A stretch of 64,000 nt of DNA from Octopus vulgaris. Taxonomy: Eukaryota. The DNA lies in assembly GCA_951406725.2 (NCBI GenBank), contig OX597816.1:73842001-73906000 (forward strand). The letters run 5' to 3'. A model generated the notes under the pieces. It was given only the letters and a program-made list of their open reading frames with translations, was not told the origin of the DNA and made no database searches. Made by a program: the position numbers and the translations under genes. Every line of letters starts with the position of its first letter. Positions within the stretch are counted from its first letter, which is position 1. Below are positions 10,817 through 61,593 of the stretch, piece after piece.

Positions 10817-10851
<35 letters not shown>

Positions 10852-11052
10852 GCAATAATAATTCTCTAAATGAGATATAGACAGTGACTGCTCCATAACA
10901 TAAGGGACATTAGCCAACTGAATATGGCTAGGGACAGGGCAGGGTGGTGGGGGTGTCACTGTTGCATTTAGCACCAGGCGAACATCAACGTCACCAGATA
11001 GGCCGACGCCATCACGGCGTCCTCTATCTTGCAAAGGGAGATCATTCCCCAA

Positions 11053-11125
11053 GAAGCGGATGCCACATACGGACCTAGGTTTCAAGGTGTATTGCCTATT
11101 ATCAACGTATGGTAGGCACCGCTTC
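11053..11125 (-). ncRNA. Type I hammerhead ribozyme (U3:A8 variant), copy 1
   Basis: CAUACG-UUGAUAA-uAGG caauaca CCUu-GAAA-CCUAGG-UC/CGUAUG. Helix I is extended by UGCC/GGCA and GAAGCGG/CCGCUUC. Confidence 0.85.
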
Positions 11126-11407
11126 TCGACGAACAACTCACCGTGCAAGATATATATAAAGATTTTCAAGTAAATACATTTACTGATTTCGAAAATCTGT
11201 TCGACAGCAATAATAATTCTCTAAATGAGATATAGACAGTGACTGCTCCATAACATAAGGGACATTAGCCAACTGAATATGGCTAGGGACAGGGCAGGGT
11301 GGTGGGGGTGTCACTGTTGCATTTAGCCCCAGGCGAACATCAACGTCACCAGATAGGCCGACGCCATCACGGCGTCCTCTATCTTGCAAAGGGAGATCAT
11401 TCCCCAA

Positions 11408-11480
11408 GAAGCGGATGCCACATACGGACCTAGGTTTCAAGGTGTATTGCCTATTATCAACGTATGGTAGGCACCGCTTC
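11408..11480 (-). ncRNA. Type I hammerhead ribozyme, copy 2
   Basis: Identical to copy 1, offset by 355 bp. Confidence 0.85.
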
Positions 11481-12014
11481 TCGACGAACAACTCACCGTG
11501 CAAGATATATATAAAAATTTTCAAGTAAATACATTTACAGATTTCGAAAATCTGTTCGACAGCAATAATAATTCTCTAAATGAGATATAGACAGTGACTG
11601 CTCCATAACATAAGGGACATTAGCCAACTGAATATGGCTAGGGACAGGGCAGGGTGATGGGGGTATCACTGTTGCATTTAGCCCCAGGCAAACATCAACG
11701 TCACCAGATAGGCCGACGCCATCACGGCGTCCTCTATCTTGCAAAGGGAGATCATTGATAGAGGACGCCGTGATGGCGTCGGCCTATCTGGTGACGTTGA
11801 TGTTCGCCTGGGGCTAAATGCAACAGTGACACCCCCACCACCCTGCCCTGTCCCTAGCCATATTCAGTTGGCTAATGTCCCTTATGTTATGGAGCAGTCA
11901 CTGTCTATATCTCATTTAGAGAATTATTATTGCTGTCGAACAGATTTTCGAAATCAGTAAATGTATTTACTTGAAAATCTTTATATATATCTTGCACGGT
12001 GAGTTGTTCGTCGA

Positions 12015-12087
12015 GAAGCGGTGCCTACCATACGTTGATAATAGGCAATACACCTTGAAACCTAGGTCCGTATGTGGCATCCGCTTC
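12015..12087 (+). ncRNA. Type I hammerhead ribozyme, copy 3 (predicted cleavage after C12068)
   Basis: Helix I 12029-34/12069-74, core TTGATAA 12035-41, GAAA 12057-60, palindromic ACCTAGGT helix III, GUC triplet. Confidence 0.85.
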
Positions 12088-12242
12088 TTGGGGAATGATC
12101 TCCCTTTGCAAGATAGAGGACGCCGTGATTTGCGTCGGCCTATCTGGTGACGTTGATGTTCGCCTGGGGCTAAATGCAACAGTGACACCCCCACCACCCT
12201 GCCCTGTCCCTAGCCATATTCAGTTGGCTAATGTCCCTTATG

Positions 12243-12281
<39 letters not shown>

Positions 12282-12294
12282 GACACATATAAAT

Positions 12295-13125
12295 CATCAT
12301 CATCATCATTTAACGTCCGTTTTCCATGCTAGCACGACTTGGACGGTTCGACCGGGGTCTGGGAAGCCAGGAGGTTGCACCAGGCTCCAGTCTGATCTGG
12401 CAGTGTTTCTACAGCTGGATGCCCTTCCTAATGCCAACCACTCCATGAGTGTAATGGGTGCTTTTTACGTGCCAGGAGAGGCTGGCAGCGGCCCCAATTG
12501 GTTGGTGCTTTATCGTGCCACTGACACAGAAGCCAGTCAAGGCGGCGCTGGCATCGGTCATGTTCAGATGGTGCTTTTTACATGCCACCAGCACAGGTAT
12601 CACAACTACAATTTCCATTTGATATTTATTTTGATGTTGATGTACTTGACTCAATAAGTCTCCTCAAGCACAGCAGGTCATGTGCCACCGGCACAGAAGC
12701 CAGTCAAGGCAGCGCTGGCATCGGCCACGTTCGGATGGTGCTTTTTACGTGCCGCTGGCACAGGTATCGTAACTACAATTTCCATTTGATATTTATTTTG
12801 ATATTGATGTACTTGACTCAATAGGTCTCCTCAAGCACAGCAGGTCACCCTACGATCCAAAGTAAGCACAGCAGGTCGTTCTGCAATCCAAGGTACTTTG
12901 GATGGGCTAGGGCTATGCGAAACTGGTGCAGGAAGCAGCCTGGGTCTTTGCAGTCACAGCATATCTCCAGAGATCTCGGTCTTTTGTCATTGCCTCTGTG
13001 AGGCCCAACGTTCGAAGGTCATGCTTGACTACCTCATCCCATGTCTTCCTGGGTCTACCTCTCCCCCTGATACCTTCAACTGTTTGGGAGTGGCACTTCT
13101 TCACACATCTCTCCTCTTCACACAT
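12295..13125 (+). mobile_element. Composite (CAT)n-flanked SINE with internal ~60-150 bp duplications, joined to a minus-strand RTE LINE 3' coding end (12930-13125)
   Basis: cagctggatgcccttcctaatgccaaccact motif, seen in many copies (9830-10110, 15700-16190, 17450-17810, 26365-26860, 49280-49990). RGRGRPRKTWDEVV..DRDLWR is an RTE C-terminus. Confidence 0.75.
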
Positions 13126-15656: not shown

Positions 15657-16230
15657 TTATATATATATGTATATATTTATATATATATGTATATATTTGT
15701 ATCAGAACCAAAATCGAAGTCGATCAACATCAATGGAAATTGCAGCTGTGATACCAGTGCCGGTGGCACGTAAGCGAACCATCCGATCGTGGCCATTGCC
15801 AGCCTTGCTTGGCCCCATGCTGGTGGCACATAAAAAGCACCATCCGACCATGGCCGTTGCCAGCGCCACCCCAACTGGCCTCCGTGCCGGTGGCATGTAA
15901 AAAGCACCATCCGATCGTGGCCGTTGCCAGCCTCGCCTGGCCCCCATGCCAGTGGCACGTAAAAAGCACCATCCGATCATGGCCGTTGCCAGCTTCACCT
16001 GGCACCTGTGCGGGTGGCACATAAAAAGCACCCACTACACTCATGGAGTGGTTGGCATTAGGAAGGGCATCCAGCTGTAGAAACATTGCCAGATCAGACT
16101 GGGCCTGGTGCAGCCTTATGGCTTCCCAGACCCCAGTTGAACCGTCCAACCCATGCTAGCATGGAAAGCGCATGCTAAATGATGATGATGATATATATAT
16201 GTATAAGGATGAAAAGGAACACACGAGTTG

Positions 16231-18099: not shown

Positions 18100-19639
18100 A
18101 TTCTGAGTTTAAATGCTGCCAAGGTTAACTTTATCTTTCAGGTCAATGAAATAAAGTAAAAGTCAAGTGCTGGAGTCAATGTAATTGACTTATCCCCTCC
18201 CCCCAAAATTGCTGGCCTTGAGCCCTGCAAGATACTGATGTGGGAATACTTTAATGAGGTAATGTTGTGATCTCAGCCACTTAAATGCCATGGAAAACAG
18301 ATAACTGATCTTATGAATCATGGCGCTCAAGAACAGTATAACCCCCACCCCCGTATGCATGTGTGTGTGTGTATGTGCCTGTGCCTCTGTGTGTGTGTGC
18401 ATGTGTCTTCTTAATATCAGAGATAAGACATTTAGTGTAATCAAAAATTAAGCCACAACACAAATAAAAATACTGTAAACATTATGTAAAAATTAATGTC
18501 ATCTCAGCTCAAACATTTAAACAATTTCCTGTTGCTCAGGAAACATAAGATAAGCGAGTGTAGGATTTAGTTCCTCATCCTTATTCCCTCAATTTATCAA
18601 CCAAACTTTTCAAATGTCCTCACTGTAAATCTGTCTTTGAAACCTTCAGGGTTGCAGGTTAACTTCTATTTAATTTATGGGTTAGACAAAAAAAAAAAAA
18701 TTGAATGATGAATTTTATTTGTAATTATAGAGTAAAATACACATATCAGCCATTCATCATGTGATCATGTGATCAACCAGACTATTGGATGTTGTTATAT
18801 TATACATCGCTGGTCACATTGTGCTTTGCATAATTTTAGTTTTTGAATGATGCCACTCTATTGGCTAGGTAACCAGGTCAACATTCCCTCTGATTGGAAG
18901 GCTACTCTGTCACACGATAACCCAATTACAGCTGAGTGGACTGGAGCAACACAACACACAGCCAGTATGGGAATTGAAACTGCAATCTCATGATTGTGAG
19001 TGCAACACACCTAGCCACTAAGCCATGCATGCCTGCATTAAACATTCATAAACACAGAAAAATTGTTAACTTCATTTAATCATTTATTATTTCAGGTCAA
19101 AAGATTTCATCACACAATCTGCAACCTGGTCACCAACACAGTTCCACAGTAACTGGTCTGAGACGAGGTTGTTGACCAGTATACACATGGCTTCATCATC
19201 ATCATCATCATCATCATTTAATGTCCATTGTCCAAGCTGGCATGGTTTGGATGGTTTGACCAGGGCTGGTAAGCTGAGGGGCAGCACCAGACTGCAATCT
19301 GATTTGGTATACTTTCTACAGCTGGATTTCCTTCCTCATGCCAACCACTCCGAGAGTGTAATGGATGTTTTTACGTGCCACTAGGATGGGTGCCATTTAT
19401 GTCACACCAGTATCTGCCACAACTATGATTTCACTTGGGTTTATGGCTCTTCTTCTCGAGCACAGCATATTGCCAAAGGTCTTGGTTGTTTGTCATCACC
19501 TCCATAAAGCCCAACACTCGAAAGGTGATTTTTATGTGCCACCAGCACAGGTGCCAGTTACGCGACACTGGCATCAGCCATGACTATGATTTCACTTAGC
19601 TTGATGGGTCTTCTCATGCACAGCGTATCACCAAAGGTC

Positions 19640-20825
19640 TCGGTCACTAGTCATTGCCTCCGTGAGGCCCAACGTTCAAAGATCATACTTCACCACCATG
19701 CCCCATGTATTTCTGAGTCTACCTCTTCCACAGGTTATAGATCGGCACTTGTTTACACAGCTGTCCTCATCCATGTGCTTCACATGACCATACCAGCACA
19801 GTTGTCTCTCTTGCACACCACATCTGATGCCTCTTATGCCCAACTTTTCTCTCAAGATGCTTACACTCTGTCATACATGCACACTGACATTGCACATCCA
19901 GCGAAGCATGCTAGCTTCATTTCTTTCAGACCTACACATGTCCTCAGCCCTCACAGCCCATGTTTCACTGCCGTGTAGCACAGCTGTTCACACACAGGCA
20001 TTATACAGTTTGTCTTTCACTTTGCGAAGGAGGCCCTTTGTTACCAACAGAGGTCAGAGCTCTCTGAACTTTGCCCAGCCTATTCTTATTCTCGCAGCTA
20101 CACTCTCAGAGCATCCACTTCTGCTACTGACTTGGTCACCTAGGTAATGGAGGCTATCAACTACCTCTAGCTTACCCACCTGGCATTTGACGGAGTCTAT
20201 TTGCTGTCCATTTTTAGTGTTTATTGTAACTGTGCACCTTCCACACATGAAAATTATTTTCCCAGTTAACCTTCCGCTGATATTGCTGCACCTCTTATGT
20301 GTCCATAGCTTACACTTGGTACATCTTATGGGATTTCTGTCTTCACCTTTCCTGCAGATTAAGCAGGGCCATCTACCTGAAGGAACATTTGGTTTGCCTG
20401 CCTTCCTACTTACTAAGACTTTGTTTTTTGCTAGGTGAACTCCAAGGCCCTTTGATTATAGACCTTACTTCCACACCTGAAACTTCTTCTCTAGTTCTGG
20501 TAGTGATTCAACAATAAGAACATGGTCATCAGCAGAGAGGAACTCCCAGGGGCAGCCCATTTTGAATTCCTCTGTTATTGTCTGGAGGACTATGATGAAC
20601 AAGAGGGGGGGGGCGCTGATCACTGGTGAACCCCTACTTGTACCCTGAATTCATCACTATACTTGTTGCCAACCCTGAGCTTACTGACAGCATCCCTGTA
20701 CATGGCTTGTACAGCCCTCACCAACCACTCATCTATCCCTAGTTTCAGCCTTGACAACCAGATAAGGGATTGAGGCACTCAATCAAAGGCTTTCCCCATG
20801 TCAACAAAAGTCAAGTACAGAGGTT
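19640..20825 (-). mobile_element. Decayed RTE-clade LINE (RT and C-terminal region)
   Basis: LYLTFVDMGKAFD, RVQVGVHQ, LEVVDSLHYLGD..ARIRIGWAKFREL, with stops and frameshifts. Confidence 0.85.
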
Positions 20826-23940: not shown

Positions 23941-24334
23941 TCTTTATATATAAAAGTGAGGTTGTGTGTCTGTCTCCTACGATTTAGATTCCTAACTACT
24001 CCCACATTTTGCGGTGCAGTTTAACCAAAACCGGGTATCTTATACTCGTGATTCATATCGAGACCGTCTGGGTATTAGCGCGCGTCTACGATGAGTCTAC
24101 GATTTAAAAAAAAATTTACCATCAATTTTTCCCATTTTTAATCCATTTTTGACATATATAAGGGAAGTAACTCTCTAAAATTTATTATTAAATCTCAGAA
24201 CGTAAAAAGCTACAGTAACACCCCTCCCCCTTTGTGGTTAGCCATATTGAGATGGCTATTATACTTTACATCTCTAAAAATGCTTATATAATTATTTCCC
24301 TTACAAACCCGAGCAACGCCGGGCGATACTGCTA

Positions 24335-26181: not shown

Positions 26182-26858
26182 TTATCTCGATAACCATGGG
26201 AGCAATGAAAAAAATACAACGCCCAAACAATACCACTGGATTATTCTATATATCTGTGTAATTTTTCATGCAATTCCACCCAGCTGTTTGACCATGAATA
26301 CCAAGACAAGAAAGAAGCCCCCATGTCAAATATATATGTATGTATATATATATATATATATATATCATCATCATCATCATCATTGTTTAACGTCCACTTT
26401 CCATGCTAGCATGGGTTGGACGGTTCAACTGGGGTCTGGGGAGCCCGAAGGCTGCACCAGGCCAGTCAGATCTGGCAGCGTTTCTACAGCTGGATGCCCT
26501 TCCTAACGCCAACCACTCCGAGAGTGTAGTGGGTGATTTTATGTGCCACCGACACAGGTGCCAGACGAGGCTGGCGAACGGCCACGCTCGGATGGTGTTT
26601 TTTATGTGCCACCAACACAGGTGCCAGACGAGGCTGGCAGACGGCCACGCTCGGATGGTGTTTTTATGTGCCACCGACACAGGTGCCAGATGAGGCTGGC
26701 GAACGGCCACGATCGGATGGTATTTGTTACGTGCCCACAGCATGGAGGCCAGTCGATGCGGTACTGGCTACGGCCACGTTCGGATGGTTTTCTTGTGTGC
26801 CACCGGCACTGGTACCACAAAGATACAAATTCCATTGATGTTCATCTATTTTGATTTG

Positions 26859-58500: not shown

Positions 58501-61005
58501 ACCTTGAGCAAGTGTCTTCTACTATAGCCTCGGGTCGACCAAAGCCTTGTGAGTGGATTTGGTAGACAGAAACTGAAAGAAGCCCATCGTATATATATAT
58601 GTGTGCATGTGTGTGTGTGTGTGTGTGTTAATGTGCGTAAACACACCGATGCTGGTGTGTTTACGCCCCCATAACTTAGCAATTCGGCAAAAGAGACCGA
58701 TAGAATAAGTACTAGGCTAACAAACAATAAGTCCTGGGGTCGATTTGTTCGACTAAAGGCAGTGCTCCATCATGGCCACAGTCAAACGACTGAAATAAGT
58801 AAAAGAGTAAGAGTATGTCAAGCCATGGGAAAATATCACCTTTGCTTGGAAACAGGTGAGGGTTGGTGACAGGAAGGGCATCTGGTCATAAAAAGTCTGC
58901 CTCAGCAAATTCCATCTGATCCATGCATGCCAGTATGGAAAATTGGACATTAAACGGTGGTGGTGATGATGATAAGGACACAGTTTTAATTTCCATTACT
59001 AATTTTGCTATATGGAAAATTCTCAGATCTCAGTTTTTTATTCAATTTTGTCCATATATACATCTCGTTTATGGAATAGAAGCAACACGAAATTCTATTT
59101 TATTCCCTTATGAACATAGAGCTGTTATGATTCCAATATTTTACAACAAAATTGTACTTCCATGTTTTATCAAAGAAATTGTGGAATTCTATGACCAAAT
59201 TGATAATTCACTCAGTCTCTCTGTCAGTGATTTTTGATTCTGATCTGAGGTGTTTGGCAAACACACTGAAAACGAAAGTATATGAAACTAATAAAAGATC
59301 TATTTTCTTCATTGAATACTTTCTTCTTTGATATTTGCAGAAATGATTTATAAAGGGTATCTCTCACTGAAATGGTTTAGAACCATATCAAAATAAAGCA
59401 ATAGAGTTGCTGAGCTTAAATCAAATCAATGCCTGTACAGCCATTCCTCTAAGTGGGGACTTTCAGACAGATTTGCATTCATTAATGCATAATTTTGTTT
59501 TTTTATTTATATATATATATATATTGGGTCATCCCATAAATAATGCAGCTTTTCTGATTGCACGAACTAAAAGTCAGAGAGAGACAGGATAAACTACCTG
59601 CATCAACTTGCTATAAAAACAGGGAGTAATTTTATTTTGTCTTTATTCTTAGTGCAAGTTTTGAAGAATGCAGTTCGATTTTAACAGTTATTTTTAACAT
59701 TTCTTCTCTTCCTCACATGTTCTCCTTCATACATTATGCCTACCTCTCACTCCCCAATCCTGTCCTCATGGCCCTGTTCCTCTGTATCATTGCTATCTTG
59801 TAGCTCCCCCACAACAACTCTATAAATACCCAGGTTTTCACCACTCGCCCCCACCCTGCACTCTTTAATGACACTTCCTTCGCAATATCCTGCCGCTTAT
59901 ATTATGGCATTTCGAACCTCAAGGGTATGCTCTGGCACTTGCCACCATCTATATCTCTTTCTTCCTTTACTCAACCATCCCTTTTATATTCTGATCCCTG
60001 TACCCTGAGAGTATGCCTGACACTTTGCCACCATCTCTATACTGCTGTCCCCCACTCTCTCTCTCTCCTTCTCCTGCACTTCCTTCAGGTTGGGTAACCA
60101 TGTATATCCTTTGTGGCAGCACACCTCTTTCTGTCTTCATTCCTGATCTCTCTCTCTCTCTCTCTGGCCGGGTAACCGTGTAGCTCCTCTACAGCAAGAC
60201 ACCTGTTTCTGTCTCTTTGTCACACTCTAACCTTTCATCATCTGACACAAGGTCGCCTCCTCCCCACTCAAAAGACTTTTGCCTTGCAAATACTTGGTGA
60301 CCCCGTCAGCGCAGATGCCACTTAAAAGCACCCAGTCCACACTGTAAAGTGGTTGGCATTTGGAAGGGCATCTAGCTGTAAAAACCTTGCCAAGACTGAC
60401 CTTGCCTGTGCTTGGGCCACGTAAAAAGCACCCAATCCACTCTGTTGGGTGGTTGATGTTAGGAAGGGCACCCAGCTATAAAAATCCTACCAAAACAGTC
60501 ACAGAAACCTGGTTCAGGCTTTTGCCTGGCTGGCTCCTGTCAAACCATCCCACCCATGCCAGCATGGAAGGCAGACATTAAACAATGATGATGATGATAA
60601 TGAGTGGATTTGAGCAACGTGAAATAAAGTGTTTTGTTCAAGGACACAAACCACTGCCAACAATTGAACTCACAACCTTACAGTTGCGAACCTAATACCT
60701 TACCACTAAGCCACAGGCTGTTACTGAAGCGTGCCATTATCCACATTGCAGCAATTCCAAAACTAACTCTTACAGTATTGAGACATTGTGGAATTACTTA
60801 AAATTGTAGTAATAACACAGCTAAGTCCTACGGTATTTTCTAGAAGCTGTGAATTTGCTATTTATTGTCATCTAAAACCGTTTCATTGTTTCCTGTTGAT
60901 CATTGACATTTCTGTTTGGTTAATGAAGTGGACAGAGGGGAAGAGGAAGAGGAGGAAATCACTGACATTTTTGTCTCGATGACCACAATATATATGTGTA
61001 TATAA

Positions 61006-61037
<32 letters not shown>

Positions 61038-61041
<4 letters not shown>

Positions 61042-61408
61042 GGCAAATATACGTCACGATGTGTTGCCGCTACTGTTTATAACTCGCTCTGAGATTTATC
61101 ATTGTTTGATTTCACTTTTTCAATATCAGTGTCAATCGATACTGGAAAAAGTATATGTATTTGTGAGGGGAACTGACTTCTCATCGACAACTATGATTGT
61201 CACACGCCAATGATAGGTCAATACCTTGAAACTCGAGTCCGTGTGTATCGTAAGTTGAAGACGGGAAGGATGACTTCCCTTCACAAATACTGATAGGGCA
61301 CAGAAAGTGTGTCTATAGCCAGCTGGAGGAGGTGTCTTCCTGGGGCTACAAACTACAGTAGCATCCACCCTTAGGGGTTGGCCATATTCAAATGGCAAAT
61401 ATACGTCA

Positions 61409-61412
<4 letters not shown>
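61038..61412 (+). mobile_element. Retrozyme-like 352-bp monomer with 23-bp terminal direct repeat, inside (TA)n
   Basis: aaatggcaaatatacgtcacgat at 61038-61060 and 61390-61412; central HHR; collinear with the 355-bp unit. Confidence 0.85.
61201..61245 (+). ncRNA. Type I HHR with mutated core (CCAAUGA)
   Basis: CACACG-CCAAUGA-uAGG ucaaua CCUu-GAAA-CUCGAG-UC/CGUGUG. Confidence 0.8.
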
Positions 61413-61447
<35 letters not shown>

Positions 61448-61593
61448 TGAGCATGTGTGTACATCTATATATATGTGTACATCTAGATATATATATGCGT
61501 ATACCTACCTATCTACACATAAATACATATATTTGTGTGTGTGTGTGTGTGTACACACATATTTAATGTAGTCGTTGGTTATGGCTGATCAGA

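Follow-up and report, generated by a model that had tools for sequence, protein, structure and literature searches.

A probably disabled copy of an abundant 350–360-nt mobile RNA element with a self-cutting ribozyme in Octopus vulgaris

The insertion at positions 61038..61412 of the window (the whole 64,000-nt stretch of Octopus vulgaris DNA analyzed here) is very probably an animal non-LTR retrozyme, truncated at its 5' end and of a type that acts as a non-autonomous Penelope-like element (PLE). Insertions of its family have two fixed 3' ends, here called E1 and E2, and one of each occurs per head-to-head insertion, which is the signature of the Penelope 'tail'. Judged by its sequence, the 352-nt element is an animal non-LTR retrozyme, with a non-coding unit of 350–360 nt, a predicted type I hammerhead and thousands of copies. 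The features of this copy and of its relatives in the window are listed in Table 1.

Results

An abundant and diversified family

The initial annotation had taken two subfamilies within 50 kb to suggest a diversified, abundant system, and genome-wide counts bear this out. In the 2.8 Gb of genome searched, the hammerhead 22-mer of the 352-nt subfamily had at least 163 exact matches. A relaxed hammerhead pattern and a mid-unit pattern had at least 2477 and at least 4924 exact motif matches, respectively, and a tail pattern at least 2860 matches, with 0 in the reversed control of each; all these counts are lower bounds, and subfamilies with other forms of helix II or III are under-counted. Full-length units of 351–360 nt formed about 15 clusters below 93% identity, leaving aside five artefactual clusters that ran across flanks or junctions, and the subfamilies were 55–93% alike. 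The units had a GC content of 42–47%, occurred from monomers up to 23 units per insertion and had no fixed terminal repeat. No coding frame tied to the unit was found in 44 scanned loci, 20 of them picked by the tail motif, and an ORF with RT and GIY-YIG domains was absent from the inserts, which consisted of the unit alone from end to end.

Contigs from four sequencing runs presumed to be RNA (X1, X2, X4 and X9, under two organism labels) carried variants of the family. They covered the unit and not unique flanks, contained no joints, and are uninformative on strand, level and circularity. At one locus (L255, G000:C1:4977300-4979400), two different subfamilies lay side by side in one (TA)n run. 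At L016/L017, L078 and G000:C1:67.39-67.47 Mb, an identical insertion occurred twice a few kb apart, and these were read as local segmental duplications carrying the element. The literature searched, with most subscription journals outside its scope, yielded no paper that treats this family or reports fixed ends for retrozymes. In Repbase or Dfam, which lay outside the search, the family may already have an entry under a repeat name.

Two fixed 3' ends, one of each per head-to-head insertion

A first look at the 30 top-ranking BLAST loci showed 3' ends concentrated at two positions. Since a choice by BLAST could bias the ends, 80 loci were then chosen by the hammerhead pattern and not by their ends (the first 40 of the general hammerhead list and 40 of the 352-nt subfamily list, 37 in order and 3 as arrays). 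These loci gave 129 3' ends in 81 insertions, of which 68 lay at +160–178 (E1, mode 173–175), 53 at +212–224 (E2, mode 216–219) and 8 elsewhere, so that 121 of 129 fell in two windows spanning 32 of the 352 positions. E1 and E2 were about 45 nt apart and at the same sites across subfamilies 60–85% alike, and the 3' flank was (TA)n in 95 of the 129 cases. The 5' ends of the 80 loci were uniform round the unit (chi2 p 0.92). The expectation that insert boundaries would be circular permutations was therefore not borne out: every subfamily has its 3' ends fixed at two homologous sites, and the 5' ends alone vary freely.

Head-to-head insertions made up 48 of the 81, with 40 E1/E2, 1 E2/E2, no E1/E1 and 7 with an unclassified end. 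Hence, 40 of the 41 classifiable ones were E1/E2 (p 2e-11 against a coin toss). The 33 direct single-arm insertions ended 26 times at E1, 6 times at E2 and once elsewhere. Pooling with the BLAST-chosen loci, with 7 duplicates and 2 broken chains dropped and E1 widened to +155, gave 98 E1/E2, 2 E2/E2, no E1/E1 and 12 other insertions. A set of 40 more divergent loci, mapped by profile with looser end calls, contained 22 head-to-head insertions (15 E1/E2, 1 E1/E1 and 6 other). Arms were joined mostly via microhomology of 0–8 nt. Outside (TA)n, 8 of 9 head-to-head insertions had the same word of 9–15 bp on both sides as candidate target duplications, two of them in low-complexity flanks, and these words partly overlap the last bases of the element.

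At +1 to +4, 7 of 286 5' ends were counted against 3.25 expected (p 0.047). That 5' ends accumulate at the cleavage site was rejected, the best 8-nt window holding 15 ends and the scan-wide null having a median of 14. A recurring G>T at +171 was also dropped as a variant, being microhomology to the target TA.

The insertion at 61038..61412 and its relatives in the window

In this copy E1 is at +173, counted from the hammerhead cleavage site, and the last 3 nt of 61390..61412 are ambiguous with the target TA run. The 23-bp terminal redundancy inside the (TA)n flanks, which the initial annotation had noted, is an exact repeat with a period of 352. The ends had been placed about 180–200 nt from the cleavage site; measured from the predicted site, the 3' end is 173 nt away and the 5' end 202 nt. 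The 23-mer itself is neither special nor a fixed LTR-like repeat, since direct insertions in the family form a continuous range from about 220 to 2078 bp. The copy is an E1 single arm that stopped 23 nt into the second round, and the '1.07 copies' of the 352-nt unit are a chance truncation.

Table 1 Positions of the retrozyme copy, its flanks and related insertions in the window.
Feature	Position	Strand	Remarks
Left (TA)n flank, target microsatellite	60988..61037	.	
Single-arm insertion, 352-nt (CTCGAG) subfamily, 375 bp	61038..61412	+	5' end free at +151, 3' end fixed at E1
23-bp redundancy, copy 1	61038..61060	+	Second round of unit begins; length incidental
'Tail' segment E1–E2	61061..61106	+	E2 at ~61103-61106, internal in this copy
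Conserved stem, 3' strand	61069-61076	+	Within tail segment
CUC/GAG hairpin	61083-61093	+	Within tail segment
Type I hammerhead with helix I extension	61188..61257	+	Predicted cleavage after 61239
Helix I	61201-61206 / 61240-61245	+	This copy
Hammerhead core CCAAUGA	61207-61213	+	Private G5A at 61209
Helix II	61214-61227	+	
Palindromic helix III	in 61231-61238	+	
Near-invariant CCUGGGGCUA block	61339..61348	+	
Conserved 7–8-bp stem enclosing E1, 5' strand	61355..61362	+	Partner is the 61069-61076 sequence in an intact unit
Invariant GCCA/UGGC hairpin	61381..61396	+	Immediately 5' of E1
23-bp redundancy, copy 2	61390..61412	+	Stops at E1
Right (TA)n flank, target microsatellite	61413..61496	.	
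355-nt (CCTAGG) subfamily insertion, left arm, 2.6 units	10851..11756	-	3' end E2 (10851)
355-nt (CCTAGG) subfamily insertion, right arm, 1.4 units	11757..12246	+	3' end E1 (12246)
Third-subfamily short fragment	24205..24269	+	Stem strand and GCCA hairpin

The two arms of the 355-nt insertion in the window are joined head to head and obey the E1/E2 rule. The 352-nt and 355-nt units had been described as collinear, and they align end to end with 223 of 382 columns identical. The global alignment score was 224 (500 dinucleotide shuffles, 87 ± 12, maximum 122), and after removal of the first 55 nt, which hold the hammerhead, it was 180 (shuffles 70 ± 11, maximum 109). The motifs quoted in the initial annotation were all recovered at their positions in both units. 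In the 352-nt unit these include helix I (CACACG, 61201 / CGUGUG, 61240), its extension (CAACU, 61188 / AGUUG, 61253) and the stem strands ACAGUAGC (61355) and GCUACUGU (61069), which correspond to ACAGUGAC (11823) and GUCACUGU (11897) in the 355-nt unit. Further dispersed short tandem repeats with periods of 62–167 bp were observed at 12515-12847, 15758-16032, 19368-19673 and 26537-26735 of the window; they have GTGCC-rich motifs in common and adjoin (TA)n runs.

Hammerhead motifs

The hammerhead of the family has a helix I of 6 bp, a helix II of 3–4 bp and a palindrome as helix III. By a count made by eye, helix III was CCTAGG, CCATGG, CTATAG or CTCGAG in 94 of the 100 matches listed; another group of hammerheads carries a 4-nt CCGG helix III. 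The exchange of CCUAGG for CUCGAG had been put forward as a compensatory change. Both forms are present and pairing is kept, but both are palindromes, and given that the variants listed are palindromic in 94 of 100 cases, the conserved property is self-complementarity. For helix III pairing between two copies, the palindrome duplex is predicted at -10.7 kcal/mol, and a dimeric form has been described for animal hammerheads (PMC4209133).

The core of the 61038..61412 copy reads CCAAUGA and thus carries a G5A change that was absent from the initial annotation. Among 100 hammerheads sampled from the family, 97 retain G5, and nearly all contig depth of the four runs presumed to be RNA has G at position 61209, which indicates that G5A is private to this copy. 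The change is expected to inactivate its hammerhead. Rfam models gave no hammerhead in this copy up to E 10 and 0 matches in the whole window at the gathering score, and RF00163 (Hammerhead_1) matched the sister copy L169 with E 1.5e-4 and 27.5 bits, the gathering cut-off being 34. The motif could be parsed in 15 of 15 aligned units, with positions 3 and 8 being C-G, U-A or U-G, and U3-A8 is a described hammerhead variant. Core variants occur in many subfamilies (U4C, U3-A8, U3-G8, and U-U or C-A at the base of helix II), and variant motifs of such kinds had weak activity in published papers. The frequency of core variants, the Rfam score below the cut-off and the weak activity of such motifs elsewhere count against the retrozyme explanation.

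Conservation of RNA structure

A circular consensus fold of 15 aligned genomic units was compared with 150 column shuffles that kept conservation classes. The fold energy was -29.6 compared with -1.4 ± 3.2 in shuffles, and two-sided pair changes numbered 15 compared with 3.7 ± 2.0 (maximum 9). A 34-pair structure edited from the consensus fold is paired in 97% of cells and has 10 pairs with changes on both sides, a number reached in 0 of 500 shuffles and falling to at most 2 when the structure was slid; these figures are not formal probabilities, because the alignment also supplied the structure and its rows are related sequences. Covariation was strongest in helix I and its extension, and the stem and hairpins around the two end sites were mostly invariant. 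Since fold energy and two-sided changes exceed the shuffles, the earlier reading of structure-level selection on an RNA is supported, and both the alignment and the covariation sought between units were found.

When folded as circles and compared with 100 shuffles, the hammerhead strand gave z -6.0 (352 nt) and -4.7 (355 nt), and the other strand z -5.4 and -3.3, respectively. As the opposite strand folds well too, folding singles out no circle. The ACAGUAGC/GCUACUGU stem had been described as local only across the circle junction. Its strands lie at +116–123 and +182–189 from the cleavage site and are local in any linear monomer or multimer; the stem looks split because of where the 61038..61412 copy starts, and it does not bear on circularity. 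Junction-spanning reads were rejected as evidence of circles, as genomic tandem copies contain the identical junction.

Probably a single template for each insertion

At shared non-CpG polymorphic sites, discordance was 1.0–2.7% within an arm, 0.8–5.0% between arms and 22–40% between loci. In the 360-nt subfamily, 37 young arrays were selected for their similarity to a multimer query; they comprised 383 unit pieces and reached 14.8+8.4 and 8.6+14.5 units. The variants that distinguish loci were fixed in every unit, those of a single locus being present on both arms. Of the other changes, 184 were confined to a single unit and 16 rows were found in 2–3 units, with no intermediates. Minor substitutions recurred between loci 8 times (6.6 expected), 0 of 20 units with at least two minor changes had a pair in common with another locus, and linked variant pairs recurred only inside L217 and L236. 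The monomer junction was seamless in 311 of 312 crossings. The haplotype uniformity of both arms and of long arrays argues for a single monomer template. This pattern is expected if one monomer, probably circular, was copied repeatedly. A circle would be the simplest template of this kind and is the best inference from the uniformity of the long arrays; sources copied while still mutation-free would also yield uniform arrays, and some minor variants may be assembly errors.

The arrays at L207 (G000:C1:161876435-161884763), L213 and L204 are very young head-to-head arrays of 7–8.3 kb and 20–23 units, near-identical across contigs. At L217, linked variants repeat at an offset of 5 units, which reflects a local duplication or an assembly effect, and at L236 a patch of 5 changes occurs in the innermost unit of both arms. 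The 5'-most piece of the left arm of L099 has the haplotype of another subfamily, which suggests a template switch between RNAs. Single-locus variants fixed in an array were read on the hammerhead strand. Of 24 in L001-L170, 7 were A>G, two of them in divergent loci, and none was T>C; of 5 in L201-L240, 3 were A>G and one was T>C. Unit-private changes had an A>G:T>C ratio of 47:59 (Fisher p 0.013 for an 8:1 array-fixed skew). The skew is possibly due to A-to-I editing of the template RNA, although the numbers are small and unsampled source loci could explain it.

Penelope-like elements in the genome

PLE insertions are 5'-truncated partial tandems, often with an inverted copy, with a tail of 30–40 bp at one end only and a bias for microsatellites (PMC8557442). 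Purified PLE protein cuts both strands of AT-rich DNA, and on AT-rich targets its RT starts at two internal sites that bound the tail (PMC11167929). The octopus genome holds a young PLE family with RT and GIY-YIG domains, in which a 781-aa frame was present in 16 of the 148 matches listed. Its ends (16 short and 5 tailed of 21) show the same two-end pattern as the retrozyme. Loci of this family (L107, L112 and G000:C16:20837296-20840559) have a CxxC linker and, in the 3' region, a U3-A8 hammerhead; where present, the tail is about 38 nt long. A second abundant PLE family (L281, L282) gave 15004 first-look candidates and has a 722-aa open frame, for which there was no Pfam match at E 0.001.

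By blastn and nhmmer, the unit had no DNA similarity to a PLE in 30 GIY-YIG loci with about 1.2 kb of 3' flank and 2 loci of the second family, and the loci compared for pLTR homology are a small part of the PLE families of the genome. The best nhmmer hit (E 0.004, opposite strand of L119) was taken for a separate insertion. Resemblance between the tails of the 781-aa element and the retrozyme did not exceed that of shuffles. At L274:2464-2712, one retrozyme arm adjoins the endonuclease region of the second PLE family; this fragment was discarded as a partner and read as the result of insertion into an unrelated PLE copy. No autonomous partner was found among ORFs near 44 loci (20 picked by the tail motif), and other RT elements lay near some copies.

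Discussion

In the mechanism that we propose, tandem copies would be transcribed, and the hammerheads would pair via the palindromic helix III and cut out monomers, which would probably be ligated into circles. A PLE RT/GIY-YIG protein acting in trans would nick both target strands about 10–15 nt apart, and on the same RNA one nick would prime at E1 and the other one at E2. Each RT would copy a random length, often for several rounds, and the two cDNAs would be joined by microhomology. The sole surviving arm is usually E1, as in the 61038..61412 copy. In its full form the proposal is tentative, and we give it slightly less than an even chance: two Penelope RTs on opposite target strands would prime at the structure-defined E1 and E2 of one circular RNA of 350–360 nt and roll up to 15 times, and after joining of the cDNAs, RNA-level changes, possibly A-to-I editing, would be fixed in every unit of the new array. 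If true, the tail and inverted structure of Penelope would reflect obligatory asymmetric two-strand priming, and the family would supply genomic proof of a circRNA transposition intermediate.

A PLE could also insert from a linear template, either an uncleaved multimer or a cleaved monomer copied by end-to-end template jumping, with no circle. This is rather unlikely, but it draws on the finding that PLE insertion in vitro used unprocessed RNA, hammerhead cleavage being dispensable (PMC11167929), as well as on the small excess of 5' ends at +1 to +4 and on the foreign haplotype at the 5' extremity of L099 as a sign of template switching. However, the excess is not above the scan-wide null, unit-specific variants of a linear multimer should pass between loci in register, which the units with several minor changes do not show, and the junctions are almost all seamless. 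It is improbable that insertions of 1–2 units grew in place as a satellite by unequal crossover, as proposed for vertebrate retrozymes. Local amplification has been put forward there (bioRxiv 10.64898/2026.07.22.740005), and linked variants do occur in two units in 2 of the 37 young arrays (L217 and L236), but variants within arrays are nearly all singletons or fixed, both inverted arms are long and keep their fixed ends, and arm lengths form one continuum.

The initial annotation had envisaged a circular RNA reverse-transcribed from random points, giving freely permuted inserts with terminal redundancy. The uniform 5' ends and the strong circle fold of the 352-nt unit agree with this version, which is hardly tenable given that the 3' ends refute it and the minus strand folds well too. 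It is very improbable that the family is SINE-like and moved by an ordinary LINE, its inversions arising by twin priming as in L1. LINE insertions, too, show 5' truncation, inversions, target duplications and fixed 3' ends, and other RT elements lie near some copies, but L1 twin priming leaves one fixed end, whereas here there are two, one of each per insertion, the arms overlap and are not adjacent, priming is internal in a multimer and poly(A) is absent. Returning to PLE-driven insertion with two priming sites, the mover of retrozymes is here inferred from insertion scars and not from co-occurrence. The sharp rule of one E1 and one E2 end per insertion is directly testable by in vitro assay. 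On the question of how Penelope elements make tails and inverted ends, the family offers an ORF-free substrate of 350 nt, recently active as judged from near-identical multi-kb arrays on many contigs, and the uniform long arrays bear on whether satellites are inserted whole or grown in place.

Comparison with known systems

The retrozyme class is known and PLE drivers have already been proposed; the two-end rule is absent from the retrozyme papers compared. Animal non-LTR retrozymes have been described in coral, mussel (350–390 bp) and axolotl, with a proposed circRNA intermediate that a PLE reverse-transcribes into multimers (PMC7229834; PMC7761336). The octopus family has in common with them non-coding tandem units (150–450 bp in that class), each with a type I hammerhead, a GC content below 50% and thousands of copies. 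LTR, PBS and PPT are absent in that class, and here there is no fixed terminal repeat; target duplications, when present, exceed 4 bp, and the flanking words here have 9–15 bp. In the text available of these papers, no fixed priming ends, tails or head-to-head arms are described ('inverted' occurs 0 times in that of PMC7229834), and no motif is said to indicate the partner. RNA circles are demonstrated in the mussel, coral and axolotl retrozymes (PMC7229834), whereas the octopus family is known from genome sequence and its core variants are frequent.

A preprint on vertebrate retrozymes (bioRxiv 10.64898/2026.07.22.740005) arrives at the same class of partner and regards them as non-autonomous PLE derivatives. 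As far as its available text goes, the basis is co-occurrence and pLTR homology in Xenopus, no mollusc is sampled and insertion ends are not treated ('tail', 'boundar' and 'target site' occur 0 times). It favors local amplification of arrays, whereas the octopus arrays look inserted whole and a pLTR homologue was not found in the loci compared. Non-autonomous elements of Chlamys such as MRC1 are likewise non-coding, multicopy, head to tail and PLE-driven (PMC8557442); in the portion of that paper available, they generally have 3' similarity to an autonomous family, whereas none was found for the octopus unit in 30+2 PLE loci.

Unlike PLEs, the octopus element is ORF-free, its 350–360-nt unit being the whole element. 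Its tail is about 45 nt, compared with 30–40 in PLEs, and its hammerhead has a helix I of 6 bp and a helix II of 4 bp, compared with the minimal PLE form. With endonuclease-bearing PLEs it shares partial tandems, an inverted 5'-truncated copy, a tail at one end and AT-rich or microsatellite targets (PMC8557442). It also shares with the Poseidon PAc PLE two start sites downstream of the hammerhead (PMC11167929), which in the octopus element lie 173 and 216–219 nt past the cleavage site.
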